A stretch of 32,000 nt of DNA from contig JBHLRO010000017.1 in assembly GCA_048882505.1 (NCBI GenBank), positions 30,001 to 62,000 of the forward strand, read 5' to 3'. Numbering within the stretch: position 1 is the stretch's first letter; each line of letters starts with the position of its first letter. The notes below the pieces were generated by a model. That model did not search any database. It was not told the origin of the DNA and worked only from the letters and a program-made list of their open reading frames with translations. The stretch comes from Candidatus Thorarchaeota archaeon (lineage in GTDB: Archaea > Asgardarchaeota > Heimdallarchaeia > Hodarchaeales > Hodarchaeaceae). This document shows positions 10,872 to 32,000 of the stretch, piece after piece. Made by a program: the position numbers and the translations under genes.

Positions 10872-11399
10872 TTAAGATGATCTGATTGCGGATTTGTTAA
10901 TTATACGTAATGCCTCAGTTAAATATTCAACCACATCTTCATCACTTATAGAGGGGTCGGCAATTGTTTCACGTAGGAGATCTGACATGGTTATTATCCC
11001 TCGTAGGATTCCATTTCGACCTGTCACGGGAAGACGCTTAATGTTGTATGATGTCATACGTCTAGCGGCAACAGCTAGCGAAGATGATTCATTAACTTTA
11101 ATCAAAGGAGTAGACATGATTAATTCAAGTTTAAGTCGACTAGATTCATTATTTGCAACTATTTTTGTTACTAAATCCCGTTCAGTAACTATCCCAATGG
11201 GTTTCTCATCTACATCATGTATAATTACGCTTCCGATTCCGTGGGTCACCATTAAAGAGGCAGCGCTTTCAGCAGAGTCATCTTTTGAAAGGGAAATTAC
11301 GTCTTTCATAATATGTTTAACTTTTCTGTTGAAGGACATGGAACAGGAGACCCCATATCTAAAATTTTCCCGTACACAAAGTTTCCTTTCCTCATTCAT
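10872..11399 (-). CDS. CBS-domain pair protein
   Basis: Two CBS motifs (GIGSVII..V.EKPIGIVTERDLV; IKRLPV....GILRGIITMSDLL). Start overlaps the upstream stop (ATGAATGA), indicating translational coupling. Confidence 0.9.
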   Translation of the reverse strand: MNEERKLCVRENFRYGVSCSMSFNRKVKHIMKDVISLSKDDSAESAASLMVTHGIGSVIIHDVDEKPIGIVTERDLVTKIVANNESSRLKLELIMSTPLIKVNESSSLAVAARRMTSYNIKRLPVTGRNGILRGIITMSDLLRETIADPSISDEDVVEYLTEALRIINKSAIRSS

Positions 11400-12846
11400 A
11401 AATGTCCAAGATGTCTTTAACTAGGCCCATCTTCTTTTGAAAATCAGCTTGGCGAGCGATCATGATGCGCTGTGCTTGGGGAGATCCTGCTCCATGCAGT
11501 GACTCGGTTTTATAATTCAGTGAGGCAACTCCCATCGATAAACTCTCAATAAATCTTAGAAGCTTGTATCGATCCTCCGTGGAAACTTCGTCACATGTTT
11601 GAAGATACTTCTTGACTAATTTTCCAACTTCGTCCGATTTTAGATCATTTTCAGAGGGTAAGGTGCAGATTATTCCGCCTGCGAGATCTTCTGCATATCT
11701 TCCGATCATATATGGAAATCGGGTAACATTTTGCTTATTGACATTTGCTAGGAGCATGTCCATCTCCCAGTTTCCCGCGGGGCGCTTGAAACCCATCACA
11801 CTACATGCAACGGCACAGCACCACATAGTCTCATTTAAATGAACCATCTCGACGAGTTTGTCCCGTACGTGAGAAGCGTTTTCAACTCCATTATACTGTG
11901 CAATTAGGGCAGCGGAACCGATAAGTACATCCCCAACTCCTGTCTTGCACGCATATGATTGCCGGTGATATCCAGCAAAACGATTTACCAGTTCCCCTGT
12001 GTATTCTACCTCGCCATTCATGAACACGTTTTCATGAGGAATGAACACATCGTCAAAAATCACGAATACTTCCTGGCCTCCATACTTCCAGTTCCCTATA
12101 TCGAGATTCCCATCCTCCATTTTACGTGTATCAGAGGTTTGACGGCCATAAACCATAATAATCCCTTTGGCATTGGTATCAACACCAAAACTTACTGCAT
12201 AGGCTTCTTCTCCTTCGCGGAGGGCAAGGGTCGGCATAACTATGGCGCAATGAGAGTTCAGAAATCCTGTTTGATGTAGCTTAGCTCCTCGAACAGTGAT
12301 TCCTCTCTCCGTCTCTTCAATAACGTGGAGATAAGCATCGGGATCCGATTGTTGAGAGGGCCGCTTACTTCGGTCACCTTTAGGATCCGTCATCGCTCCT
12401 CCCACCATAAGGTCTTGATTTTGAACTCGGGTCCAATACTTTATTAAGCGCTGGTGATAATCGGAACCATCTTTTTGATCCATTTCGTAAGTTACAGAGT
12501 ATAAAGAGTTAATGGCATCCCATCCGACACATCGCTGGAAACAACATGCGGTCTTTTGGCCCAGTAAACGTTGAGCTTCAATTTTCTTGATTAAATCCTC
12601 TTTTGTTCGATGAATGTGAGTGAAGCGGTTTACGCGATTCCCAGTCAGATGAGACGAAGCCGTCATTATGTCCTTGTACTCTTCTTTCTGCGCCAATTCG
12701 TAGATTTTCTTGATGGAATTAATCGATGGTTCCATAATCTTGTAATAGGGGTGGTTCCAGAATTCAGTGATATGCTGACCAAACATATAGAGATCTATAG
12801 GCCGCAAAATGCTTTTCAGATATTCTTCAGGAGTTTTTAGCGTCAT
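11392..12846 (-). CDS. abfD: 4-hydroxybutyryl-CoA dehydratase / vinylacetyl-CoA isomerase ([4Fe-4S], FAD)
   Basis: CFQRCVG (Cx3C), AMTDPKGDRS, RGAK.HQTG, GGQE, YHRQSYACK (His and Cys cluster ligands), ESLHGAGSPQAQR. Confidence 0.9.
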   Translation of the reverse strand: MTLKTPEEYLKSILRPIDLYMFGQHITEFWNHPYYKIMEPSINSIKKIYELAQKEEYKDIMTASSHLTGNRVNRFTHIHRTKEDLIKKIEAQRLLGQKTACCFQRCVGWDAINSLYSVTYEMDQKDGSDYHQRLIKYWTRVQNQDLMVGGAMTDPKGDRSKRPSQQSDPDAYLHVIEETERGITVRGAKLHQTGFLNSHCAIVMPTLALREGEEAYAVSFGVDTNAKGIIMVYGRQTSDTRKMEDGNLDIGNWKYGGQEVFVIFDDVFIPHENVFMNGEVEYTGELVNRFAGYHRQSYACKTGVGDVLIGSAALIAQYNGVENASHVRDKLVEMVHLNETMWCCAVACSVMGFKRPAGNWEMDMLLANVNKQNVTRFPYMIGRYAEDLAGGIICTLPSENDLKSDEVGKLVKKYLQTCDEVSTEDRYKLLRFIESLSMGVASLNYKTESLHGAGSPQAQRIMIARQADFQKKMGLVKDILDIYE

Positions 12847-13546: not shown

Positions 13547-14110
13547 ATGAGTAGCGCGATAACTGCAGATATCCAATTCTTACTCCTATTAGCTGTAATC
13601 ATTGGAGGAGCTCTTTTCCTCACGGTCGTAGGTATATTTTTCTACATGATTACAAGGTTTAAAGAGTCTAATCCAGGACCACGACAGAAGATTGAGAAGG
13701 AGCATCGATTAGAACTTCTTTGGACTTTTGCTGCGATTATTTTGGTTGTGTTTGCATTTGTTGTCACGTTACCCACCGTTACAAAAATCGTTACTATGCC
13801 GCAGGAAGATTCTGAAATGATATGGGTCACTGGATTAAGGTTCCAGTGGCAGTTTAGGGAGGAAGCAGGAAATACTTCCGTGGGAGTTTTAAGTTTGGAT
13901 GTTGGCCAGCTATATGTCCTGAATGTGACTTCCGTTGACGTCGTGCATAGTTTCTTTGTTTATGACCTCTCATTCAAGATCGACGCCATACCTGGAGTGT
14001 TTAATCTTTTTTGGTTAAAGATTGAGACCCCAGGAACATATCGAGTACAATGCGCAGAAATGTGTGGGGACTCTCACTTTAATATGCTCGCAACTATAGT
14101 TGCCAGCTAG
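13547..14110 (+). CDS. coxB: heme-copper oxidase subunit II with CuA site, no fused cytochrome c
   Basis: Two TM helices, G.RFQW.F, DVVHSF, KIDAIPG, CuA motif CAEMCGDSHFNM. Confidence 0.95.
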   Translation: MSSAITADIQFLLLLAVIIGGALFLTVVGIFFYMITRFKESNPGPRQKIEKEHRLELLWTFAAIILVVFAFVVTLPTVTKIVTMPQEDSEMIWVTGLRFQWQFREEAGNTSVGVLSLDVGQLYVLNVTSVDVVHSFFVYDLSFKIDAIPGVFNLFWLKIETPGTYRVQCAEMCGDSHFNMLATIVAS

Positions 14111-14130
14111 ATTATCAGGGGATAACAGAA

Positions 14131-15684
14131 ATGACACTGCTTACTGAAACTACTAGTAATAGATCTACAGTCAACCAGATATTGGCAATTATTGGCACCA
14201 CAAATCATAAAACAATTGGATTATTATACTTGGTTTTTTCAATTCTCAATTTTTTGATTGCAGGATTATTCGCTCTCTTAATTCGAATCGAGTTGTTCTT
14301 ACCGGGACCAACGATCGTTTCTTCGAGTACGTATGCTGAACTATTCTCGCTTCATGGTACAGCAATGATCTTCCTCGTGGCAATGCCTATGGCTGCTGGA
14401 TTCGCAAATTATTACATACCTACCTTAATAGGTGCCAAGGATTTGTACTGGCCCAGGTGGAACAATGCGGCTTTCTTCTTACTGATTCCTGCTGGATTAT
14501 TCATTTATCTTTCATTTCTCGATGTGGGATGGACTGCCTACCCTCCATTATCTACTATCTATACCAGCTCCGCTGTAGAACTGTGGGTAGCAGGGATCAT
14601 TCTGATTGGTGTTTCCTCAATGGCCGGAGGATTAAACTTTGTTCTTACGATCTTAACCATGAGAAAACCTGGGCTTGGCTGGCGAAGTTTAGATCTCTTC
14701 ACTTGGTCAATTTTTATTACTGCAATAATACAGATTATTGCAAATCCAATATTGACAACGGGAGTGGTTCTACTTGAATTAGATCGGTTAATAATTGCCA
14801 ATACTGCAAGTACGCAAGGGATATTCTTCGCTTCCGTGAGTGGAAGTTCACCGGTTCTATGGCAGCATATATTTTGGGCGTATAGCCACCCGGCGGTCTA
14901 TATTATGGTTCTTCCTGCCATGGGAATCACCTCTTATCTTATTTCAATGTTTGCTCATGATGGAGACCCAAAACATGTTTTTGGTTATACTTCTATGGTT
15001 ATCGCATTGGGCGTGATTGCTTTCCTGGGGACGTTTGTTTGGGGACATCATCTCTTCACGGTCGGCCTGGGCAGTCAAGTAAACATTTTCTTCATGGCAG
15101 GAACTTTCATTATCGCGGTTCCTAGTGGAATTAAAACTTTCAATTGGTTGTTCACTCTTTATGGTGGCAGAATTAAATTCGAAACTCCTATGCTTTTTGC
15201 ACTAGGATTTTTATTTGGTTTTACGCTAGGAGGAATAACGGGCGTCTTTCTTAACGTAGTTCCTCTAGACTTAATTCTTCATGACACCGTCTTTGTTGTT
15301 GGCCACTTTCACTTAATTGCAATAGGGGGAATTGTCTCTACATTCTTCGGGATACTCTATTATCTTTACCCAGAAGCGACGGGAAAAATGTATAACAAAA
15401 AGTGGGCAAATCTCCATTTCTGGTTCTGGACAGTAGGTTCTATGATGACATTCGGTGCTATTGAAATGGCAGGGCTAAATGGATTCCCTCGGCGCTATTT
15501 TGATTATAGGCCCGATGCGTTTTGGATCATGATTTGGAACCAAATTGCCACAATTGGAGCAATCTTAATGGCAATTGGCGTACTAATAATGGCTATCAAC
15601 CTAATACAGAGCTACTTGAAAGGCGAACTAGCGGGCAAGAATCCATTTAATTTTGGATATCAAACCGATCGAAACACAGCATAG
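14131..15684 (+). CDS. coxA: heme-copper oxidase subunit I, type A2
   Basis: All six His ligands present (LHGT, YSHPAVY, WGHH, GHFH). D-channel GAKDLYWPRWNN, K-channel VPSGIK, PRRY. YSHPxVY replaces GHPEVY. Confidence 0.97.
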   Translation: MTLLTETTSNRSTVNQILAIIGTTNHKTIGLLYLVFSILNFLIAGLFALLIRIELFLPGPTIVSSSTYAELFSLHGTAMIFLVAMPMAAGFANYYIPTLIGAKDLYWPRWNNAAFFLLIPAGLFIYLSFLDVGWTAYPPLSTIYTSSAVELWVAGIILIGVSSMAGGLNFVLTILTMRKPGLGWRSLDLFTWSIFITAIIQIIANPILTTGVVLLELDRLIIANTASTQGIFFASVSGSSPVLWQHIFWAYSHPAVYIMVLPAMGITSYLISMFAHDGDPKHVFGYTSMVIALGVIAFLGTFVWGHHLFTVGLGSQVNIFFMAGTFIIAVPSGIKTFNWLFTLYGGRIKFETPMLFALGFLFGFTLGGITGVFLNVVPLDLILHDTVFVVGHFHLIAIGGIVSTFFGILYYLYPEATGKMYNKKWANLHFWFWTVGSMMTFGAIEMAGLNGFPRRYFDYRPDAFWIMIWNQIATIGAILMAIGVLIMAINLIQSYLKGELAGKNPFNFGYQTDRNTA

Positions 15685-15699
15685 GCAGGTGGACGTTTT

Positions 15700-16533
15700 A
15701 TGGCAAATACAAACGAAACGATCGTGACTCACAAAACTTCCCTTTGGCCCCCGTTCTTGGCTATAACAGCGGGATCTCTGGGAATTGCGCTAACATTTCT
15801 CTCCTCTGGCCAATTCATGTTAGGTATTGCCATTTTATTCAGTTATCTTATTCTTTTGATTTTATTTATAGTTCAAGAAACATCAACCCAGAAAGTAAAA
15901 GCTGAAGAAGAACGACCGTATCCACGTCATTTCTTCATGTGGATTTTTCTTGCATCAGAAGTGCTTTTCTTTGGTTTACTTATCGGAGTCTCCTTTATCA
16001 TCAGGCTACGCTCAACAGCCTGGGCAGATTTGGCGCAGTTGCTGATTGAATTGTTTGGATTCAACTTCCAAAAGAGTGGAAGAATCCCTCCCGTGTGGCC
16101 GAATGCGTCTGATGTTTTGAATATCCCATTAACTGCCGTAAACACGTTCATTCTGATATTATCTTCAGTCACTATGGTCAAGGCGGTTGAATCGATAGAA
16201 AAGGATTACAAGCAGGGGCTTCGGAATTTCTTATTCTTCACCGCGATTCTGGGAGCGGTTTTTCTAGTTATTCAACTGTTCGAGTACTATAATCTATTCA
16301 CTAGCGGCTTTACTCCCGATTCAAATCTTTTTGGAGCCACCTTTTATTTGCAAACTGGCTTTCATGGTGCCCATGTCTTCTTGGGCATTATTATGGTGTT
16401 TTTCATTGCATTAAAAGCTCATAAGGGAGGTTATTCGAAATTGAATTATTCGGGAGTCGAAGCGGTAGGGCTCTATTGGCATTTCGTGGACTTGGTATGG
16501 ATAATGCTCTTCACCATTATTTACCTAATCTAG
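15700..16533 (+). CDS. coxC: heme-copper oxidase subunit III
   Basis: H..SLWP N-terminus, MWIFLASEVLFF, NTFILILSS, FYLQTGFHGAHV, LYWHFVDLVW. Confidence 0.95.
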   Translation: MANTNETIVTHKTSLWPPFLAITAGSLGIALTFLSSGQFMLGIAILFSYLILLILFIVQETSTQKVKAEEERPYPRHFFMWIFLASEVLFFGLLIGVSFIIRLRSTAWADLAQLLIELFGFNFQKSGRIPPVWPNASDVLNIPLTAVNTFILILSSVTMVKAVESIEKDYKQGLRNFLFFTAILGAVFLVIQLFEYYNLFTSGFTPDSNLFGATFYLQTGFHGAHVFLGIIMVFFIALKAHKGGYSKLNYSGVEAVGLYWHFVDLVWIMLFTIIYLI

Positions 16534-16539
16534 GAGGAA

Positions 16540-16833
16540 ATGAAAACAATGAATACTGATACTAGAGAGAAAAACCGACCAACTAATGAAGTTTTTATTG
16601 CCCTAGCAGTGTTAACATTACTAGAATTTCTTATCAGCTATCTAGACCAAATCTTGGGTCAAAATCTGATTCTTCCCTCACTTTTAGGGATAGCAATTGT
16701 GAAAGCGGGTCTTGTGGCGGCTTTTTTCATGGGGATTCTTTACGAAAAGAATCGAAGGGATATCGTTCTGATTGTATTTATTTTTCCAGCAGTTATAGCA
16801 CTTATAATCGCAGTCATCCCTTTATTTGGTTAA
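16540..16833 (+). CDS. coxD: heme-copper oxidase subunit IV (prokaryotic COX4/CtaF-like)
   Basis: 97 aa, three TM, LAVLTLLEF...AIVKAGLVAAFFM. GGAGG RBS at 16533-16537; last gene of the operon. Confidence 0.8.
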   Translation: MKTMNTDTREKNRPTNEVFIALAVLTLLEFLISYLDQILGQNLILPSLLGIAIVKAGLVAAFFMGILYEKNRRDIVLIVFIFPAVIALIIAVIPLFG

Positions 16834-17598: not shown

Positions 17599-18606
17599 GT
17601 GGTTTTTATGCGAAATGAGACTTTCGAGCGTTATCTAAGAGAGAAAAACCTAGACCAGGAAAAAATCGATGACTCAATAGCCATAGTTACGGAATTTCGG
17701 AAATATCTCATGATTTCCAAGGAATATCAAGATAATATCACTTATGACGCCTTACACGACTTTTCAGCATATCTAATAGAGACTGGTAAAAATTCGTACG
17801 ACAATTATGTATCGCTCCTTCGCTATGGATATTTCATAGATAATAAAGAATTAATCATTGCCTCAATGGAATTACTTGACGGAAGTGAGATGATTGAGAA
17901 CTTTTCCAAGAGACTTATAGATGAATACGGAGTAAATGTACGAAACGAAATCTTCGAGGGTATGGAAGTCCCGCCTCTAGGATTACATCCAAAAAAGAAA
18001 CCACCAATTACTAAAACACTTGTCAAACGGTTTATTGAAAAATATGGGGAGGAGGAGGGTGGCGGTTTTTTCGCAAAAGGCTTAAGAAACAAGTACACGG
18101 AATCATACAAAAAACCAAGGGAAATGTTTCAAGAGAATGAAGACATTGACGAGTTTCTCCATAAAAAACGTAAAAAGTTCATTGATACCTTAGAGTCTCA
18201 TCGCAAAGAAAAATCATTGTTCTTCACTCAGGAGATAAATTCCTCAGTGCTTAATTATGTCCAGAATGACCCAACGATTGAATCAGGTACTCGTGAAGGG
18301 GATATTGTGGTTATCACAAAGATACCTTATATGACTATCCCGTTTCTAAATTCAACCGAGGAGCGACACAAGCGATACTTCTTCTGTCATAATCCATGGA
18401 TAAGAGAAGCCCTTTTAGAGGCGGATCAGCCAATTTCTCCGGCATTTTGCAATTGTAGCGGAGGTTATTATAAGAACTATTGGGAAGCCGTGCTTGACCA
18501 TTATCCTCTTAAGGTGGATCTGTTGGAATCGGTAATAAAAGGCGACAAAGTTTGTCGTTTTGCCTTGCACCTTCCCAAAGAAATCCTTGATAAAACTAGA
18601 GAATAA
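17599..18606 (+). CDS. DUF6144/V4R-like Cys-motif protein with a helical N-terminal domain resembling an integrase core-binding (SAM-like) domain
   Basis: C-terminal YFFCHNPW...FCNCSGGYY..YWEAV...V.LLESV.KGD.VCRF. N-terminal FERYL.EKNL....I.....EF.KYL...IT...L.DF..YL pattern. Confidence 0.6.
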   Translation: MVFMRNETFERYLREKNLDQEKIDDSIAIVTEFRKYLMISKEYQDNITYDALHDFSAYLIETGKNSYDNYVSLLRYGYFIDNKELIIASMELLDGSEMIENFSKRLIDEYGVNVRNEIFEGMEVPPLGLHPKKKPPITKTLVKRFIEKYGEEEGGGFFAKGLRNKYTESYKKPREMFQENEDIDEFLHKKRKKFIDTLESHRKEKSLFFTQEINSSVLNYVQNDPTIESGTREGDIVVITKIPYMTIPFLNSTEERHKRYFFCHNPWIREALLEADQPISPAFCNCSGGYYKNYWEAVLDHYPLKVDLLESVIKGDKVCRFALHLPKEILDKTRE

Positions 18607-18798: not shown

Positions 18799-19701
18799 TT
18801 GAAGAAATCAAAAGTAATAAAGAGTATCTGCTATGCATTTCTGTTCATAATGTTCCTTGGTCAGGGCATTGTGCATCCATTGAGAGCCACGCATTACACC
18901 GTTGTAATAAAGGGCCACAAGTCCGATTTAACTGATCTTGTTCTAGATGGAAAGGGGGATGAATGGGTAGAGGTTCCAGGGGCATCATTATCGCTTATAT
19001 CACTCGATTTGCTCCGAACCGTTGAGGTTGAGATTCGAGTTATGTTTAATTCTTCTCATATTGCCTTATTATACACTGTACATGATGATTATGACTTTAA
19101 CAGCTCGGATCCCCACATGTCGGGCCATGTTGCCGTTTTGTGGGCTCAAGACAGAAACACGGGGATCCATATGGGCCTTGATGACCAAGGTCAAGCGACG
19201 ACCAAGGTAGATATCTGGCATTGGGAACTGGAGACAGCACCAGGCACTATCGTAGGTGGCAAGGGGACTGCCACCAGTGGGGACGATCCTGTCGGTAATT
19301 TTGACGACGAATGGGCGACTTCTCCAGTTAACAGACATGATGACACTTCTGAAAATTCACTAATGGGCGCATGGAACCACACGGGTTTTCATAATGGAAT
19401 CAACGCATCTGGCAACTATGTTTTTGAAATGACCAGACCATTGACCACTACTGAAGAGGATTTTGATATTCAAATGAAGGAGGGGAATATCTATATAATG
19501 GCCCTTGCTTATTGGGATCCTGACCAAACCCCCACAGGTTGGCAAGATAGTGGTCATATGATTTCAGCCGATTCGGCTGGGTGGCTCGAAGTACATCTCG
19601 GCGATACTGGATCAGCACCTGGTTTTGAAATAGTACTAACGCTGTTAGGCGTCACAATAATTGTAATTTCTCAAAAGAAGAAATTTCTAAAACGTAGATA
19701 G
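18799..19701 (+). CDS. surface-anchored DOMON-like / ethylbenzene dehydrogenase gamma-related putative heme-binding protein, PGF-CTERM-like (paralog A)
   Basis: Signal peptide, LDG..DEW, DIWHWE, YVFEMTRPL.T, ALAYWD, conserved HMG and GH candidate ligands. C-terminus APGF + TM + KKKFLKRR. Confidence 0.7.
   Translation: MKKSKVIKSICYAFLFIMFLGQGIVHPLRATHYTVVIKGHKSDLTDLVLDGKGDEWVEVPGASLSLISLDLLRTVEVEIRVMFNSSHIALLYTVHDDYDFNSSDPHMSGHVAVLWAQDRNTGIHMGLDDQGQATTKVDIWHWELETAPGTIVGGKGTATSGDDPVGNFDDEWATSPVNRHDDTSENSLMGAWNHTGFHNGINASGNYVFEMTRPLTTTEEDFDIQMKEGNIYIMALAYWDPDQTPTGWQDSGHMISADSAGWLEVHLGDTGSAPGFEIVLTLLGVTIIVISQKKKFLKRR
19207..19316 (+). repeat. 110-bp inverted repeat, copy 1 (inside paralog A)
   Basis: Aligned by hand with the reverse complement of 22069-22178: 108/110 identical, both mismatches synonymous Gly third positions. 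Confidence 0.95.
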
Positions 19702-19892: not shown

Positions 19893-21590
19893 TCAATCAG
19901 AGCGATTCAAACTTGGATTAATAGCGGCCTCATCGTTTAAAGGGTTGTCCAAGTGTCGTTGCTTCTTATATTTCGCCCTAATAGCTGGAATGATCACCAT
20001 CGAAGAAACCGCGATGGATCCTAAAACAGATAGAAGGAGATCCTCAGGTTGAAGATATTCTTCGGATCCTATTCCTTCGCAACTTATAAGGTCTGGAAAC
20101 AAGGGAGTAGCGTTTATTTGGTAGTTGGCGTTAAGGAGGAACAAGGCAATCCCAGCGCTGCCATCATAATATGACAGGTGATGTCCATATTGACTTAGGG
20201 ATGTAGTTAATCGTGGTTTCCCTGTTGCTACCGGAAATCTGTTATGGTTAGTTTTCTGCGTTTCAAGCCAGTTTGCAGCTCCTAGAAGCATATTTTTGAA
20301 TTGTGGGCAGCCAAATGTCTCATACATTTCGCCAAAAAAGGCTCCAATTCCAGCAGCTCCGTAACTATACCCAGTCATATAAACCTCACTATCCTCTCCA
20401 GTAATAGCTTTTGGCCATTTAAAGCCAGCATCAGTGCTGATTGCTGACCTCAATAACCAATCCGCGGCATCAATTGCGCCATTAGCATATCTGAGGTCCA
20501 TTGACTTTTTATACAACTCCAAAAAAAATTTTCCAACACCAGCGGCTCCAGCATCTATACCTGTAATTATATCAGTACTATCGATCCCTGTAGAATAGAC
20601 CACTCCTCCATTTGCCCAATTATCACCTTTTGTTTTTTCCAAAAGCCAATTTCCTATTCTTTTAGCATTAGTTAACCATCTTTCGTCGCCTGTGGAATCA
20701 TATAGGTTCAGGAAAAACGAGCCAATTCCGGCATTTCCACTTCCGAGACCCGTATAAAAATGGGAATCGTACGGGGACGAAGTCGACCACGGTAAAGCCA
20801 TTGTTCCCGGGTTTTCCTTCATGGCTATGCTTTCTAGCCACCGTGCTCCCGAAATCGCGATATTCTTCCATTCAGGTTCATTCAAAGCATGCCCGGCCTC
20901 CAAAAAAGCGCTAACAATCCCAACAGTTCCATAATTGAAGTCACTTACACCTATAATATCATTCATTCCGTACCCCCAATATTTTACTCCTCCATTGAGA
21001 CTTAGATTGGTGTTCGCTTGGTACTTTAAGGTTATCAAGGTTCTGTTTAGTAGTTCTGAGTACGTGGAATTCTTTGTATATTGATACAGATGTAAAAGAA
21101 GTGAGGCAATCCCCGCATTCCCGTATTTCTTTCCGATATAGCGATTTCTCGTTCCTTCTCCTGTAAACCAATAGATCCCACCGTTTTCATCTGCTCTTGC
21201 TCCTTTGATAATGAAGTTCGCGGCCTTCTCAGCGTATTCTAATAAGGTTTTATTTAGAGAAATGAGATAGAATGATAAAAGGACATCAGCAATGCCCGCT
21301 GTGCCCCAATGATATCCGTAAAAATATTGGTTCCAATCCTCATCCCAATCCCGAGGAGGAGGATCGATAATACGGGGCCACTTGGCCTGATCCCCTGTCT
21401 GAACCAAATCCCCTATCAAACCTTCGATGATTTCGAAGGCCATACTCCTCATCGATTCACCATTAGCTGTCTTTATCCCAGTTGTGTTTTCCTGATGCCC
21501 CCAAACACCGGAAACCGGTAGTCCTGGATATAAAAGCAGCACTAGCAGGACTAAAATCACGCCAAATTTTCTTTTTAACATATGAATCAA
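19893..21590 (-). CDS. exported, C-terminally membrane-anchored LanC-like (alpha/alpha)-toroid protein lacking Zn ligands
   Basis: Seven G/S/DxxxGxxG loop-helix repeats, signal peptide (likely ATG at 21581, MLKRKFGVILVLLVLLL), C-terminal TM followed by RAKYKKQR, several NxS/T sequons. Confidence 0.8.
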   Translation of the reverse strand: MIHMLKRKFGVILVLLVLLLYPGLPVSGVWGHQENTTGIKTANGESMRSMAFEIIEGLIGDLVQTGDQAKWPRIIDPPPRDWDEDWNQYFYGYHWGTAGIADVLLSFYLISLNKTLLEYAEKAANFIIKGARADENGGIYWFTGEGTRNRYIGKKYGNAGIASLLLHLYQYTKNSTYSELLNRTLITLKYQANTNLSLNGGVKYWGYGMNDIIGVSDFNYGTVGIVSAFLEAGHALNEPEWKNIAISGARWLESIAMKENPGTMALPWSTSSPYDSHFYTGLGSGNAGIGSFFLNLYDSTGDERWLTNAKRIGNWLLEKTKGDNWANGGVVYSTGIDSTDIITGIDAGAAGVGKFFLELYKKSMDLRYANGAIDAADWLLRSAISTDAGFKWPKAITGEDSEVYMTGYSYGAAGIGAFFGEMYETFGCPQFKNMLLGAANWLETQKTNHNRFPVATGKPRLTTSLSQYGHHLSYYDGSAGIALFLLNANYQINATPLFPDLISCEGIGSEEYLQPEDLLLSVLGSIAVSSMVIIPAIRAKYKKQRHLDNPLNDEAAINPSLNRSD

Positions 21591-21683: not shown

Positions 21684-22622
21684 TTAGCCTTTTCTACCTT
21701 TTTTCCGGAAAAACCCTGTCCCAATTGTAACCGCAGTCAAACTAACTACCAATGCAATTACAGTAAAGCCAGGCGTTGATTGGCTTGCTGGTTCTCCCAA
21801 TTCGATATTTAGCCATCCAACAGTTTCCGCAGATACAAGGTGACCATCGTCTTCCCATCCTGTGGGGGTTTCATCGGGATCCCAATAGGCTACACCCATT
21901 TTGTAGACACTGTTCTCAGAGAACTGCGTATCATTGTCATCTGTGGTTTCTAAGGCTCTCTTCATTTCGAAAACATAATGGCCTCTCGAACCAGCGATAT
22001 CGGTATGGTTCCAATTGCCGAACAAGGAATTCTCCGCCGCATCATCATGCCTGTTTTCTGAACTCGTGGCCCATTCGTCGTCAAAATTGCCGACAGGATC
22101 GTCCCCACTGGTGGCAGTCCCCTTACCACCTACGATAGTGCCTGGTGCTGTCTCCAGTTCCCAATGCCAGATATCTACTTTTCCCTGACTGACACCTGCA
22201 TCGTCCATTCCCATGTGGGGTCCAGCTTCCTCATCTATTGCCCACATAACTGCTACGTGGCCCGATAAATGATGGTCCGAGCTGTTAAAAGCGTAATTAT
22301 CCTGTATTTCAACAAGAACGGCGATATTATCTGCATCGAATGCAACCCGCACATTTACATCAAGCTGCCTATCGTCGTTTGGAACCTCATCCCGTTCAAT
22401 CGGTACAATAGTAAACGAAAGTCCCCCTACTGCCGCCCAATCACTGGAATCTCCATCCAAGGCAATAGTTGTGAGATCCGTTTCGGTTGCTCGAAGCGTA
22501 AGGTGTGCACCATGCTCATGTTCACCGTTAGCCTGTACAAGTACAATAGTACTCACAAATCCTAACAAAAGCAGAGCAGTTAGCGATGCAATTCGCAAGG
22601 AATTTCCTATTTTAGTTTTCAT
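21684..22622 (-). CDS. surface-anchored DOMON-like / EbdC-related putative heme-binding protein, PGF-CTERM-like (paralog B)
   Basis: Same motifs as paralog A, including a 40-aa identical block (KVDIWHWE...DEWATS). His-rich HEHGAH after the signal peptide. C-terminus TPGF + TM + RKKGRK. Confidence 0.7.
   Translation of the reverse strand: MKTKIGNSLRIASLTALLLLGFVSTIVLVQANGEHEHGAHLTLRATETDLTTIALDGDSSDWAAVGGLSFTIVPIERDEVPNDDRQLDVNVRVAFDADNIAVLVEIQDNYAFNSSDHHLSGHVAVMWAIDEEAGPHMGMDDAGVSQGKVDIWHWELETAPGTIVGGKGTATSGDDPVGNFDDEWATSSENRHDDAAENSLFGNWNHTDIAGSRGHYVFEMKRALETTDDNDTQFSENSVYKMGVAYWDPDETPTGWEDDGHLVSAETVGWLNIELGEPASQSTPGFTVIALVVSLTAVTIGTGFFRKKGRKG
22069..22178 (-). repeat. 110-bp inverted repeat, copy 2 (inside paralog B)
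   Basis: Reverse complement matches 19207-19316 at 108/110 positions. Confidence 0.95.
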
Positions 22623-22841: not shown

Positions 22842-23522
22842 TTAGGCTTCTGCCTTCATAACACGAAAAAGACAGTGGCTATCACCTTTACTAATACATT
22901 TGTCCTTTATAACCTTTCGATCCGTCAATTGACCATAGAAAACCTCATCTATTTTGCAGATCAATGGATTTAACTTCATAACCCCATACAAGACGCAATT
23001 GTGCGTTTTAATGTCATAAGAAGAATTTTCTTCTGTTATTTCGGGGTAAACCCCATATTCTTCCAAAATACCAACAAACTGCAGCAATTTCTGTTTTAAA
23101 GAATCTGGACGTCCAGTGTTTTGATTTTGACGCATTAGTTGAAGTTCTATGTCTTTTGCAATTCTCTCCCCTATGCGTTCTAGAAGCTCTATTGTTTTGT
23201 CCGTTCCATGGAGCTTTTCATGTTCATCCAAAATATAAATGCAGAAATCTTTGTATACCTTTGGGAATAATTCGATTCCTTTATCTACTAGGGTATATCG
23301 CATTGCTGGACGGCCAGATTGCCCTTTCATTTCAGAGCGCTGTATGTAGCCATCTTTTTCTAGGTTAACCAGGTAATTCCAAATAGTATTTGAGCTTAAT
23401 CCAACGGCGTTGGCTATCTGTTTAACAGTGGGTCCAGGCCCCGATCCATTAAGCAATAAGTATTGTAATATCTTTCCACGCGTTCCCTTGTTGGTTCCGT
23501 CTCCTACGAGTGACACAAACAT
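22842..23522 (-). CDS. winged-HTH transcriptional regulator, COG2345/SufR-like, with a Cys-containing C-terminal sensor domain
   Basis: TVKQIANAVGLSSNTIWNYLVNLEKDGYI...GRP..RY.L; C-terminal HNC-x12-C...C-x7-C.F. Confidence 0.85.
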   Translation of the reverse strand: MFVSLVGDGTNKGTRGKILQYLLLNGSGPGPTVKQIANAVGLSSNTIWNYLVNLEKDGYIQRSEMKGQSGRPAMRYTLVDKGIELFPKVYKDFCIYILDEHEKLHGTDKTIELLERIGERIAKDIELQLMRQNQNTGRPDSLKQKLLQFVGILEEYGVYPEITEENSSYDIKTHNCVLYGVMKLNPLICKIDEVFYGQLTDRKVIKDKCISKGDSHCLFRVMKAEA

Positions 23523-28677: not shown

Positions 28678-31600
28678 ATGATAAGAAACGCCGTTAAGCT
28701 GTCACTCTGCATCATCTTTCTCAGTATTTTCATTATACAGACACTTTCAAGTGGTTTCGATCTGGCCGAAAACGAATCTCCCGTTCTTAAGCCGGTCCAA
28801 GTGTCGGCATTACGAGGCGATATTCCTGTAGAAATTAATGCTTTCACAAAGAGAATAAAAGCGAATTCCAAGGTTCAAAAATCAGAGGGGAGTATTCAAT
28901 CTGATTCTGGCGACTCCAATCCATTTTCTCCTATACATTCAAAGGTCGCGGGAACCGGAACTTTTATTGAGGATTATATCGATAATCATAATTCCGATGT
29001 CGATTCTCTTGCGGACTCTGGCAATTTAACAGACTTCGATAACATGAAAGACACGGATAGTGTTTTTGCCAATCTGTCAGAGACTACTGATTTAATAAGC
29101 GGTTCTTTTGGTCATGGAGTGGGAGTAGGCAACGAAGCCGCAACAGCAGATAACGGTCTGTATTATGTTTACGAAGGAGATGGAACACCCACCACCTTTT
29201 ATATTGATGGAGTCGTTGATAGCATCTTTATTGATATCGCGCAAAACTTTGGTGGAGTCTTAGATTTTTATTTAGGGACCATTTCAGGGAGTACATTTAG
29301 TTTTCACCAATACAACCCTATTGCTTCAGTTGACGTTAGTGGTAAGGGGACAGGATGGATGGAATTTACTGCACCAGCAGATTTTACTGCGTTTAATGTC
29401 AATCAAGGTGACGTACTAGCATTCTATTCTGCCATGGAGGATGCATATATTGGTAGATCCACATCAGGGAGCTATCTGCAGTACGGGTATACTACCGTCA
29501 ATGATCCGTTCAGTACTCCTCAACCAATCACTATGGGCAGCGTTGCAAGAAGAATCGAGATTTCTGTCCCCGTTACTGGCAGTTCATCCGATTATCATCT
29601 TGATCAGGAGGTTCAGTTTGAGAATGTGTACAACTCTTCACTTATTGACGAGGAATTGAGAATCAAAACGGGAGTTTTTAGTACGGGGTCTGAAAACCTA
29701 AATGTCTCATACTGGGACGGAAATTCTTGGCAGCTAATTACTTCAAGCTTAACTGCCTCGTCATGGAACAATTTCACGCTAAGCGATATTTCGGTGACTG
29801 AGCCGTACTTCACCATTAAATTCGGAGGGGCACAGACAACAGCAGACAGCATACAAGATTGGTGGATGATCGACGCTGTCCTAGTTTACGTTGAACAGCA
29901 TATAGCTACCACAATAGAGGATTATATCGATATACAGAGCGATATGGATTCCAGTCCTGATCTCGGTTCACATGACACATTTGCCGATTTACTAACAACT
30001 GACTCAGTGTATAATAACATCAGTGAAAGCGAGCCTGCCCCGTACATAAACTCTACCCTAATTGATACGGAATCTTTTGAAGGATCCTGGCCCCCATTCG
30101 GTTGGACTGAGTCAGGATTTACCAACTGGAACAAAGAAAACAATGCTGCCTATGACGGAGTCTATTCAGCAGATTTTGATGGTGCTGATCCCGGCCAATC
30201 TGGTTATCTATATACTCCAGTACTGGATGCATCCGATGCAGTTGCCATATATCTTGAATTTTGGTGGCGGGATACAGCCCTTGATTTTAACGAGTTTATT
30301 CTGGAGTTATACAATGGGACAAATTGGATTTCCTATCAAGACATGAATTCTCTCCCACATGCCGAGAACACCTGGATTTTTTATTCCGAACAGATAACGG
30401 ATAGCCAGTATTTCGTCTCAACTTTCCAGATTCGATGGAGAGCAAACGATGTCGAGAGTTTTGAAACTGCCTACCTCGATTTCGTTACAGTAACTAAAAA
30501 AATCAATAATCCTTTATCAGGCTATCAATTAGATTTAGAGGTTCAATTTACTGGTGTTTATGATTCTCCTATTATGATTGAGGAATTATCTATAAAAACG
30601 GGTACATTTGGAGGAACTGAGGATCTAAACGTTACCTATTGGGATGGAAGCTCTTGGCAGTTAATTACTTCAAGTTTGACTGCTTCTACGTGGAATAATT
30701 TCACGATTTCCCTTACTAGCCCCACTTTCACAATCAAGTTCGGTGGTTCAACAACCTCTTCAGATAATACCCAAAACTGGTGGGAAATCGATTCGGTTTT
30801 GCTCAAGGTGGAGAGTCCAGAAGATACGTTAGGTAAGGATTCCGGTTTTATTTGGCTTGATGCCCCTGATGAGATAGATTTAGGAACATCTTACAGCTCT
30901 TGGGTTCAGCAGGATATATCAGATGATAGTGTTCCCAGTTCCGCGACAGGAGTCATTCTAGCCTGGGTATCGGATAGTCTGGTGGACAATCATGCGGTAG
31001 CTAGAGGTTCGCAGGACACGAATGACTACATGAATGGGGGTTCAATATACTCAGAATTTGAAGATGAAACCTGGAGAATGCAGGTAGTTAAGCTCAGTGG
31101 CCATCGGTATATTGATACGTGGCGTGAATCTGCAACTGAAAGACTTTACGTAATGGGTTATACTGTAGGATCAGATCCGCGGTTTAGAAGAGTAGCTGCT
31201 GATTTGGGCGGTCTGACGGCCGACTCATCTTGGAATAGCGTAACTGTAACGGACGTCGATGAAAATACGACTGGTGTAATCATCTTAGGCCAATCAACCT
31301 CAAGTATTGACTCAACAATCTTAGTGAGAGCAGTGGGTTCCACGGACTCTATGATTGCAAGAGAATGGCAAGAGTTTAATATGGGAGTATTTTTCGTGGA
31401 AATTGATGGAAACGATCAATTTGATTATTATATTACGGAAGGAACATCAGCCAATTTTTACCTGATTGCAGAAGCAAAGGATAGTATTGATTGGTTAAGT
31501 ACAAATCGAATTGATATTTCAGCAACGGCGACAGGATGGACAGTACGAGACCTGGACAGTTATACTGCTTCGATACCATTGGATACTTCAGGGGTCATTT

Positions 31601-32000
31601 TACAACACGAATCAATAGGTACAGGGGGTAGTGATTATAGAAATATAGCACGAGCGTATGGTCAAACATGGACTCTACCCGATTATGATGTAGGCGGGGA
31701 TACCTGGATGATGGCAGGCAGTGGAATTGATTCACAAAACCGAATCCAAATTTACGCAGAATTCTTAGAACAAGATGTTTATATTCATGCTTTGACCCGA
31801 TTCAGTGATAGAAGTTCCCCAGTAGTTGAAAATTTTGGTGTAGATGATCCGGGAACTGGTACTGCGACGTTTTGGGCCGATTTAACAGATCAATCTGGTG
31901 TTAATACCGTTACGATTACGGTTAATGGTACTGATTATCAAATGAGCTATAACGGTTCCTTTTGGATAAAGGATTTGACTGTGAAATGGCAAAAGGTATA
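28678..32000 (+). CDS. very large secreted modular surface glycoprotein (>1107 aa, 3' end outside window; absent from the ORF track)
   Basis: Translated by hand: ATG at 28678 (MIRNAVKLSLCIIFLSIFIIQ signal peptide), no stop to the window end. Acidic S/T/D-rich beta domains, internal repeats, many NxS/T sequons, and the start of an Ig-like unit (D.SSPVV...ADLTDQSGV..V...VNG). Confidence 0.92.
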   Translation, partial: MIRNAVKLSLCIIFLSIFIIQTLSSGFDLAENESPVLKPVQVSALRGDIPVEINAFTKRIKANSKVQKSEGSIQSDSGDSNPFSPIHSKVAGTGTFIEDYIDNHNSDVDSLADSGNLTDFDNMKDTDSVFANLSETTDLISGSFGHGVGVGNEAATADNGLYYVYEGDGTPTTFYIDGVVDSIFIDIAQNFGGVLDFYLGTISGSTFSFHQYNPIASVDVSGKGTGWMEFTAPADFTAFNVNQGDVLAFYSAMEDAYIGRSTSGSYLQYGYTTVNDPFSTPQPITMGSVARRIEISVPVTGSSSDYHLDQEVQFENVYNSSLIDEELRIKTGVFSTGSENLNVSYWDGNSWQLITSSLTASSWNNFTLSDISVTEPYFTIKFGGAQTTADSIQDWWMIDAVLVYVEQHIATTIEDYIDIQSDMDSSPDLGSHDTFADLLTTDSVYNNISESEPAPYINSTLIDTESFEGSWPPFGWTESGFTNWNKENNAAYDGVYSADFDGADPGQSGYLYTPVLDASDAVAIYLEFWWRDTALDFNEFILELYNGTNWISYQDMNSLPHAENTWIFYSEQITDSQYFVSTFQIRWRANDVESFETAYLDFVTVTKKINNPLSGYQLDLEVQFTGVYDSPIMIEELSIKTGTFGGTEDLNVTYWDGSSWQLITSSLTASTWNNFTISLTSPTFTIKFGGSTTSSDNTQNWWEIDSVLLKVESPEDTLGKDSGFIWLDAPDEIDLGTSYSSWVQQDISDDSVPSSATGVILAWVSDSLVDNHAVARGSQDTNDYMNGGSIYSEFEDETWRMQVVKLSGHRYIDTWRESATERLYVMGYTVGSDPRFRRVAADLGGLTADSSWNSVTVTDVDENTTGVIILGQSTSSIDSTILVRAVGSTDSMIAREWQEFNMGVFFVEIDGNDQFDYYITEGTSANFYLIAEAKDSIDWLSTNRIDISATATGWTVRDLDSYTASIPLDTSGVILQHESIGTGGSDYRNIARAYGQTWTLPDYDVGGDTWMMAGSGIDSQNRIQIYAEFLEQDVYIHALTRFSDRSSPVVENFGVDDPGTGTATFWADLTDQSGVNTVTITVNGTDYQMSYNGSFWIKDLTVKWQKV

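Follow-up and report, generated by a model that had tools for sequence, protein, structure and literature searches.

The LanC fold is familiar from Zn enzymes of the cytoplasm, namely the lantibiotic cyclases and the LanCL glutathione transferases. The window of this study, which is the whole stretch of 32,000 nucleotides analysed (positions 30,001 to 62,000 of contig JBHLRO010000017.1 in assembly GCA_048882505.1, deposited as Candidatus Thorarchaeota archaeon and placed in the Hodarchaeales), carries the gene of a LanC-like protein at positions 19893..21590 of the minus strand. The gene lies between those of two surface proteins of the EB_dh family and close to a complete operon for an A-type haem-copper oxidase, and its product is predicted to be exported, membrane-anchored and without the Zn site. 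An earlier reading of the sequence (the original prediction) had taken it for a cell-surface LanC-fold protein with an activity other than that of LanC, and the structural matches to LanC domains (Z 26-34), the missing ligands and the outward topology all agree with this description. Going beyond that prediction, we assign the neighbours as probable EB_dh haem-b-type proteins and the context as an apparently respiratory one, with a cox operon near the window copy and a DOMON-NrfC-NrfD operon around its paralog.

The LanC-like protein

The stop-free translation over 19893-21590 on the minus strand runs for 565 residues from a TTG codon. The start is probably the ATG at 21581 (residue 4), giving 562 residues, and the database copy of the protein (P0002, 562 residues) begins there. 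A script-based motif scan with the pattern x4-G-[TNSA]-[AV]-G-[IV] recovered all seven LanC-type repeats with the motifs listed in the original prediction; the Gly loops start at residues 92, 153, 217, 281, 344, 407 and 473, with a repeat-to-repeat spacing of 61-66 residues. Most of the other features read earlier from the sequence fared as well. There are only two Cys, C428 and C504, both outside the Gly loops and both invariant across a nine-member Asgard clade, and the proposed signal peptide and C-terminal transmembrane (TM) helix correspond to the only two hydrophobic segments above threshold in a Kyte-Doolittle analysis (19-residue window, threshold 1.6), at residues 1-31 and 516-539. 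The sequons are a mixed case: six are indeed present in the ectodomain, but they are not enriched, as 23% of shuffled sequences reach six (shuffle mean 4.2, sd 1.9).

Residues 4-31 (21498..21581, minus strand) look like a signal peptide or a signal anchor, in which a basic MLKRK is followed by a hydrophobic run, and the N-termini of most homologs resemble it. The C-terminal TM helix (residues 516-539; 19974..20045, minus strand) is kept in the Asgard clade and precedes a basic tail assigned to the cytoplasm (RAKYKKQR; 19896-19973, minus strand). Since only two hydrophobic segments pass the threshold and the second one comes before the basic tail, the barrel between them is predicted to face outward, with both termini of the protein in the cytoplasm. 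The loops are Tyr/Trp-rich (6.2% Tyr, 3.1% Trp). A scan for sigma-70 promoters gave no excess over shuffled sequences, the sigma-70 model being inapplicable to archaea.

Fold and family

Residues 40-496 (20103..21473, minus strand) form an (alpha/alpha)7 barrel, an assignment that draws on an AlphaFold2 (AF2) model, on structure alignment and on the motifs. The AF2 model, made with 46 homologs, has a mean predicted local distance difference test score (pLDDT) of 90 and a predicted template modelling score of 0.84, and displays 14 long helices arranged as seven hairpins. In an exhaustive VIA-align comparison with 48,161 PDB representatives, the eight top solved matches were all LanC-type cyclase domains, with Z of 26-34. 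The cyclase domains of the class III/IV synthetases CuvL (8car, Z 33.7), ThurKC (8sam, 30.1) and SalKC (9ugq, 26.4) are among them, CuvL giving the best superposition of all with a root-mean-square deviation of 2.6 over 336 residues; the others are GCR2 (3t33, 32.8), MadC (8byk, 30.0), CylM (28.2), NisC (2g0d, 28.0) and LicM2 (28.0). Glycosidases and related enzymes came below the LanC domains, with Z of 24.0 for GH47, 21-23.5 for GH76, and 17-23 for AGE-type epimerases and GH88/GH105. The ranking by Foldseek agrees, though with a smaller separation between LanC domains and glycosidases; the structural check proposed earlier puts LanC on top in both programs. At the sequence level, the protein matches Pfam LANC_like (PF05147; 1.4e-22, 80 bits), and the NCBIfam models LanKC, LanL and LanM match over their cyclase part only, at 91-114 bits where the cut-offs are 304-650. 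A feature search of the ESM Atlas gave scores of <=0.78, and the structural neighbours there were bacterial LanC-family clusters.

The likeness to LanC and LanCL proteins (NisC 2g0d, MadC 8byk, LanCL1 3e6u, LanCL2 6wq1 and GCR2 3t33) lies in the two-layer (alpha/alpha)7 barrel with seven Gly loops before the inner helices, and the LanC/LanCL structures align with the window protein over 345-372 residues at Z of 28-33. LanC and LanCL proteins are cytoplasmic and have a Zn site and a catalytic His, whereas the window protein is exported, membrane-anchored and without these, and it has no lanthipeptide partners. The cyclase domains of class III and class IV synthetases share the fold, and those of class III lanthipeptide synthetases are also without Zn ligands. 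A cyclase domain of this kind is, however, the C-terminal part of a cytoplasmic lyase-kinase-cyclase of about 850 residues, while the window protein has nothing but the barrel between its signal peptide and its TM anchor. Pfam and NCBIfam scans found no kinase, lyase, LanB or LanM domain in the LanC-like protein or elsewhere in the window. No precursor-like or dehydratase gene was seen in the window and no lanthipeptide gene at the 16 homologous loci described below, which agrees with the earlier statement that lanthipeptide partners are missing. A genome-wide search for the LanB/LanM domains PF04738 and PF13575 returned no match in the 94.6%-complete genome, the controls being equally silent.

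The six-hairpin glycosidases and epimerases (GH76, GH47, GH88/GH105 and AGE/cellobiose 2-epimerase) deserve a closer look, since the original prediction had suggested glycan hydrolysis as one of the possible activities. They belong to the same Pfam clan, share the helical toroid and are often extracytoplasmic; GH76 has six hairpins in place of seven, and all of these enzymes score below the LanC domains. The Pfam GH76 match reaches 33 bits (cut-off 25.9) at residues 94-179, where it covers profile positions 91-177, that is, 87 of 366 positions or one hairpin, and the GH88 match is weak and below the cut-off. It is also known that GH76 enzymes need a consecutive catalytic Asp-Asp pair, such as D124/D125 of Aman6; there is no DD anywhere in the LanC-like protein (P0001), and none is conserved among the nine clade members. 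With a partial profile match, seven hairpins, no Asp-Asp pair and lower Z than the LanC domains, membership in GH76 was rejected, and the suggestion of glycan hydrolysis did not hold up.

Loss of the Zn site and the conserved bowl

Owing to the internal repeats, sequence and profile alignments with PDB entries were out of register, and residue equivalences were taken from Zn-bearing homologs. Repeat 4 of two such relatives, P0013 and P0014, reads SHG/AHG, their repeat 5 WCHG and their repeat 6 CHG/CCG, and the alignment places GSG, IDAG and SYG of the window protein at the equivalent sites. The positions of the Zn-binding Cys, Cys and His are held by Asp346, Ser409 and Tyr410, and the catalytic-His position by Ser284 (in GLGSG). 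Judging by these replacements, the protein has neither the Zn-Cys2His site nor the catalytic His, as the original prediction had stated. Because these ligands and the lanthipeptide partners are missing and the barrel is turned outward, the LanC-like protein is unable to act as NisC or LanCL do.

When the ligand columns were read over 265 homologs, the automated read-out was unreliable for multi-stretch matches, and single-stretch members were used. K155-Y156 in repeat 2, Y220 in repeat 3 and D/E475 in repeat 7 are kept throughout the wider Zn-less clade; Y93, W95, D346 and S409 are kept in the Asgard core. There is also a clade-specific N-terminal hairpin region, residues 61-96, with W71, P78, P79 and W82. 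As LanC topology puts the Gly loops there, the conserved loop residues would point towards the bowl at the usual place of the Zn site, and this bowl, at the N-terminal ends of the inner helices, is a probable binding surface.

Relatives and distribution

Close homologs, with 42-50% identity, come from Hodarchaeales, Heimdallarchaeota and one 'Odinarchaeota' metagenome-assembled genome (MAG), to use the names as annotated; beyond these, identity falls sharply to 32% and lower. A profile search of 1.84 billion representatives returned 133 proteins at E<=1e-30. The Zn-less proteins form two sister clades in a maximum-likelihood tree, each with 100/99 support, and the Asgard core splits into separate sub-clades for the oxidase-linked, the NrfD-linked and the giant-DOMON-linked copies. 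The gene is carried by 4 of the 301 sampled Asgard genomes and by 2 of the 21 genomes of its own genus. Among the 24 genomes sampled from the order, COX1 is present in 11, and all three carriers of the LanC-like gene are among these COX1 holders; the operon NrfD described below is confined to two of the carriers, which are congeneric.

Many bacterial LanC-like proteins carry fused dockerin, Ig-like, transglutaminase or TSP3 domains, and others are 1,000-2,800 residues long with several LanC-like stretches (P0015, P0016, P0024, P0025, P0122-P0124 and others). Given so many homologs that are fused or very long in this way, extracellular LanC-fold proteins without the canonical ligands seem to be widespread and unstudied.

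Gene neighbourhoods of the Zn-less LanC-like genes

The neighbourhoods of 16 distinct loci of the Zn-less clade were examined, and a DOMON or EB_dh-type gene adjoins the LanC-like gene in 14 of them. The original prediction had named such a survey as a check and had pictured the protein as a possible scaffold for its two neighbouring surface proteins; the adjacency is borne out well beyond the window, and such a scaffold role is plausible. Eight loci share the same-strand order DOMON (PF03351), Fer4_11 (NrfC-like), NrfD (PF03916), LanC-like and a protein of about 260 residues: L001, L002, L003/L004, L005/L006, L015, L013 (partial), L012 (distant) and L009, the last being the paralog in the same genome as the window. 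At L014/L016 the LanC-like copy stands beside a DOMON/fn3 protein of 1,486 residues, at L019 and L024 beside a DOMON gene, and at L023 and L011 beside weak EB_dh-like genes. The linkage extends over three kinds of gene arrangement and both of the deep sister clades, and many of the loci come from related Heimdallarchaeia MAGs and are hence not independent. Respiratory and redox genes recur at the 16 loci; recurring glycan-metabolism genes were not seen there. DOMON proteins beside coxABC in Hodarchaeales have been reported (bioRxiv 10.1101/2024.07.04.601786), in a text in which 'LanC' does not occur.

The DOMON, EB_dh and 260-residue proteins have one topology, with a Sec-type signal peptide and a tail anchor that would place them on the outside, and none of them has a CxxCH motif. 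The Fe-S protein of the operon has a twin-arginine signal and 16 Cys. The gene of the 260-residue partner often overlaps the stop of the LanC-like gene by 4 bp; its product begins with a signal peptide and has an anchor at the C-terminus, and hhalign matches it to the EB_dh profile (95%, 57 columns). The AF2 model of this partner (six sequences) reaches a pLDDT of only 49.7, and its predicted strands would be compatible with a beta-sandwich. Genes for haem handling, CcmF-like or CcmA/CcmB-like, are found at L002, L003 and L012. It is worth adding that at L001, L003 and L005 the LanC-like gene is followed, about 2 kb downstream, by a second cluster of DOMON (410-424 residues), Fer4_11 (386-395 residues) and NrfD (435-472 residues); in several Hodarchaeales loci the LanC-like, 260-residue and ~320-residue genes are sandwiched between two such modules, and in some there are CcmF-like, CcmA/CcmB-like and TatC genes near the doubled modules.

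The paralog operon of the genome itself lies at C5:221948-228584 (locus L009:4949-11585). It is headed by a DOMON protein of 571 residues with two DOMON domains, has the LanC-like gene (43-46% identical to the window copy) in fourth place, and ends with a 260-residue EB_dh-like tail-anchored protein. Upstream of it lie the gene of a rhodanese and a weakly cupredoxin-like gene, and the contig ends just downstream. In this 4.3-Mb genome, the only two matches to PF09459 (EB_dh) are the genes that flank the LanC-like gene of the window. PF03351 (DOMON) also has two matches, among them the first gene of the paralog operon, and the single match to PF03916 (NrfD) lies in the same operon. Three of the four detectable DOMON-superfamily genes of the genome thus adjoin its two LanC-like genes.

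The surroundings of the gene in the window

EB_dh paralog A (21684..22622, minus strand; Pfam EB_dh 5.4e-13), a protein of the EB_dh family within the DOMON superfamily, has a signal peptide and a PGF-type C-terminal anchor; its gene shares the strand of the LanC-like gene and lies 93 bp upstream of it. Paralog B (18799..19701, plus strand), likewise a surface protein of the EB_dh family, is convergent with the LanC-like gene and has a Heimdall-CTERM-like anchor. The two are 43-47% identical to 'ethylbenzene dehydrogenase-related' lipoproteins of Actinomycetota and Chloroflexota, and the archaeal versions have a C-terminal anchor of the PGF/Heimdall-CTERM type in place of the bacterial lipobox; this suggests that EB_dh genes have been transferred between the domains of life. 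Some of the bacterial homologs are fused to cytochrome c domains, which would fit a redox role for the paralogs, and four invariant EB_dh residues, Met137, His153, His206 and His261, are candidates for haem ligation.

The LanC-like gene is bracketed by an inverted repeat whose arms lie inside these two genes. The left arm (19204..19382, in paralog B) and the right arm (22003..22181, in paralog A) are 179 nt long and 85% complementary, a second matching pair of arms is found at 19079-19145 and 22240-22306, and about 40 consecutive residues (KVDIWHWELETAPG...DEWATS) are identical in the two proteins. The repeat points to gene conversion or to a potentially invertible segment of 2.6 kb; the orientation relative to COX1 is unchanged in the congeneric genome G280.

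The oxidase operon COX2-COX1-COX3-COX4 (13547..16833, plus strand) is complete and encodes an A-type haem-copper oxidase; the distance to the LanC-like gene is about 3 kb from the operon end and about 4.2 kb from COX1. G280 has the same LanC-like/COX1 arrangement. The COX1 proteins of the window and G280 are 97% identical and the adjacent LanC-like orthologs only 73%, so that the LanC-like gene evolves much faster. Just upstream of the operon, on the opposite strand, is an HpaB-type 4-hydroxyphenylacetate 3-hydroxylase (11392-12846), an O2-dependent flavin monooxygenase. The gene at 22842..23522 (minus strand), upstream of the LanC-like gene, encodes a winged-helix regulator whose Cys-rich domain is MetOD1/ATC_hydrolase-like (SufR-like), and a gene similar to it heads the homologous locus L005. 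The gene at 17599-18606 (plus strand) has a weak DUF6144 match only; it was considered as a second regulator and rejected, with no detectable similarity to the winged-helix regulator or to the ~320-residue genes of the homologous loci. Further away, the open reading frame at 28678-31998 encodes more than 1,107 residues, runs off the end of the window and has no Pfam match at E<=0.01.

Proposed role and alternatives

Because LanC-like genes almost always adjoin DOMON/EB_dh and respiratory genes, a role in respiration is most likely, ahead of peptide or sugar chemistry. The proposal we favour, and to which we would give about an even chance, is that the LanC-like protein belongs, as an accessory, to a branch of electron transfer through haem b at the cell surface, where it would act as a docking platform or as an assembly factor. 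Starting from the fold, the ligand loss, the topology and the synteny, we infer that the neighbours carry haem, which way the electrons flow and that the proteins are in physical contact. The LanC-derived, tail-anchored (alpha/alpha)7 barrel would work together with haem-b-type DOMON/EB_dh surface proteins, and electrons might pass from membrane quinol through an NrfD/NrfC-like Fe-S module to the haem b of DOMON/EB_dh proteins, and from there to the A-type haem-copper oxidase. The window copy would be the oxidase-linked paralog, with the second paralog placed inside the DOMON-NrfC-NrfD operon, and the conserved bowl would serve as an interaction or ligand site. A bolder version, possible but doubtful, makes the protein an essential subunit in fixed ratio of an archaeal respiratory assembly not described before, a 'DOMON-type alternative complex III' linked to the haem-copper oxidase, in which it would dock the haem-b carriers or host a new extracellular redox reaction.

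Parts of this scheme resemble known systems. The paralog operon, with its Tat-exported 4x[4Fe-4S]-type protein, NrfD and outer-face DOMON/EB_dh proteins, is akin to alternative complex III (ACIII), to NrfCD-type quinol modules that lack a catalytic subunit and to the beta/gamma pair of type II dimethyl sulfoxide (DMSO) reductases, in which an Fe-S protein is paired with an EB_dh haem-b protein. We know of no LanC-fold subunit in any of the three. CbsA of Sulfolobus, the exported, glycosylated and tail-anchored cytochrome b558/566, is an archaeal surface b-type cytochrome that replaces cytochrome c; its likeness concerns the DOMON/EB_dh neighbours, not the LanC-like protein, and to our knowledge no LanC-fold partner has been described for CbsAB-SoxLN. 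The EB_dh family profile also finds a match in the Sulfolobus acidocaldarius control genome. The term 'DOMON' does not occur in a review of NrfD proteins (PMC8076601). Within the literature searched, Heimdallarchaeia and lanthionine did not appear together in any paper.

Several observations weigh against the accessory role. The window copy has neither NrfC nor NrfD beside it, and a DOMON-type neighbour is missing at L010 and L018. Neither bacterial NrfCD-DOMON/EB_dh modules nor bacterial EB_dh homologs are known to need a LanC-like partner, so that the protein would not be obligate in such modules. The invariant polar and aromatic bowl, finally, would be just as compatible with binding of a small molecule or a glycan, or with catalysis. 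A glycan-binding or glycan-processing protein of the cell envelope, whose aromatic bowl binds or cleaves S-layer or N-glycans or an environmental polysaccharide, would account for the clan shared with six-hairpin glycosidases, the partial GH76 match above its cut-off and the weak GH88 match, the Z of 20-24 for GH47, GH76 and AGE-type structures, and the Tyr/Trp-rich loops; the DOMON superfamily, moreover, includes the sugar-binding CBM9, which has a weak match on paralog A. We nevertheless consider it unlikely, as the eight best structures are all LanC domains, the hairpins number seven, the GH76 match stops at 87 of 366 positions without an Asp-Asp pair, and it is redox genes, not glycan genes, that recur at the 16 loci. 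We place at a similarly low level an extracytoplasmic maturation factor or chaperone that would hold haem b, or another cofactor, or insert it into the Sec-exported DOMON/EB_dh domains. The Sec-type signals and the lack of CxxCH in the neighbours mean that any haem b would be loaded outside the cell, Ccm-like haem-handling genes occur at three of the loci, and the Lys/Tyr/Asp bowl could hold a carboxylate-bearing ligand; but the related bacterial EB_dh lipoproteins are not known to us to need such a factor, we know of no LanC-fold haem chaperone, and the tight, often overlapping coupling with the 260-residue gene suggests a fixed protein ratio.

Somewhat less probable again is a surface protein of unrelated function, with the DOMON/EB_dh adjacency reflecting a shared 'surface island' or shared regulation. 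The two loci with no DOMON-type neighbour and the non-independence of many Heimdallarchaeia loci would be expected on this account; the recurrence of the linkage in three arrangements and two deep sister clades would not, nor would the position of three of the four DOMON-superfamily genes of the genome next to LanC-like genes. By far the least probable is a Zn-independent cyclase of the class III LanKC kind, which would carry out thioether formation or Michael addition on an exported peptide or protein. CuvL, ThurKC and SalKC are among the best structural matches, and class III cyclase domains do without Zn ligands as well. Set against this are the lack of a kinase or lyase domain in the protein and of precursor-like and dehydratase genes in the window, the silence of LanB and LanM in the genome (where the controls were silent too), the absence of lanthipeptide genes from the 16 loci, and a barrel that is turned outward, away from ATP.

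Implications

The LanC-like proteins of this clade are exported, tail-anchored and ligand-less, and gene order ties them to DOMON/EB_dh proteins, to an ACIII-like Fe-S/NrfD module and to an A-type oxygen reductase. The pairings are concrete enough for testing with recombinant ectodomains. Heimdallarchaeia are the archaea closest to eukaryotes, and their route from quinol to oxidase is debated. Should the LanC-like protein be part of that route, it would be an unexpected component of archaeal aerobic respiration and a new role for the LanC fold; should it prove to be an essential subunit or to host a new redox site, this would give the LanC fold a new function, and would do so in the lineage nearest to eukaryotes.

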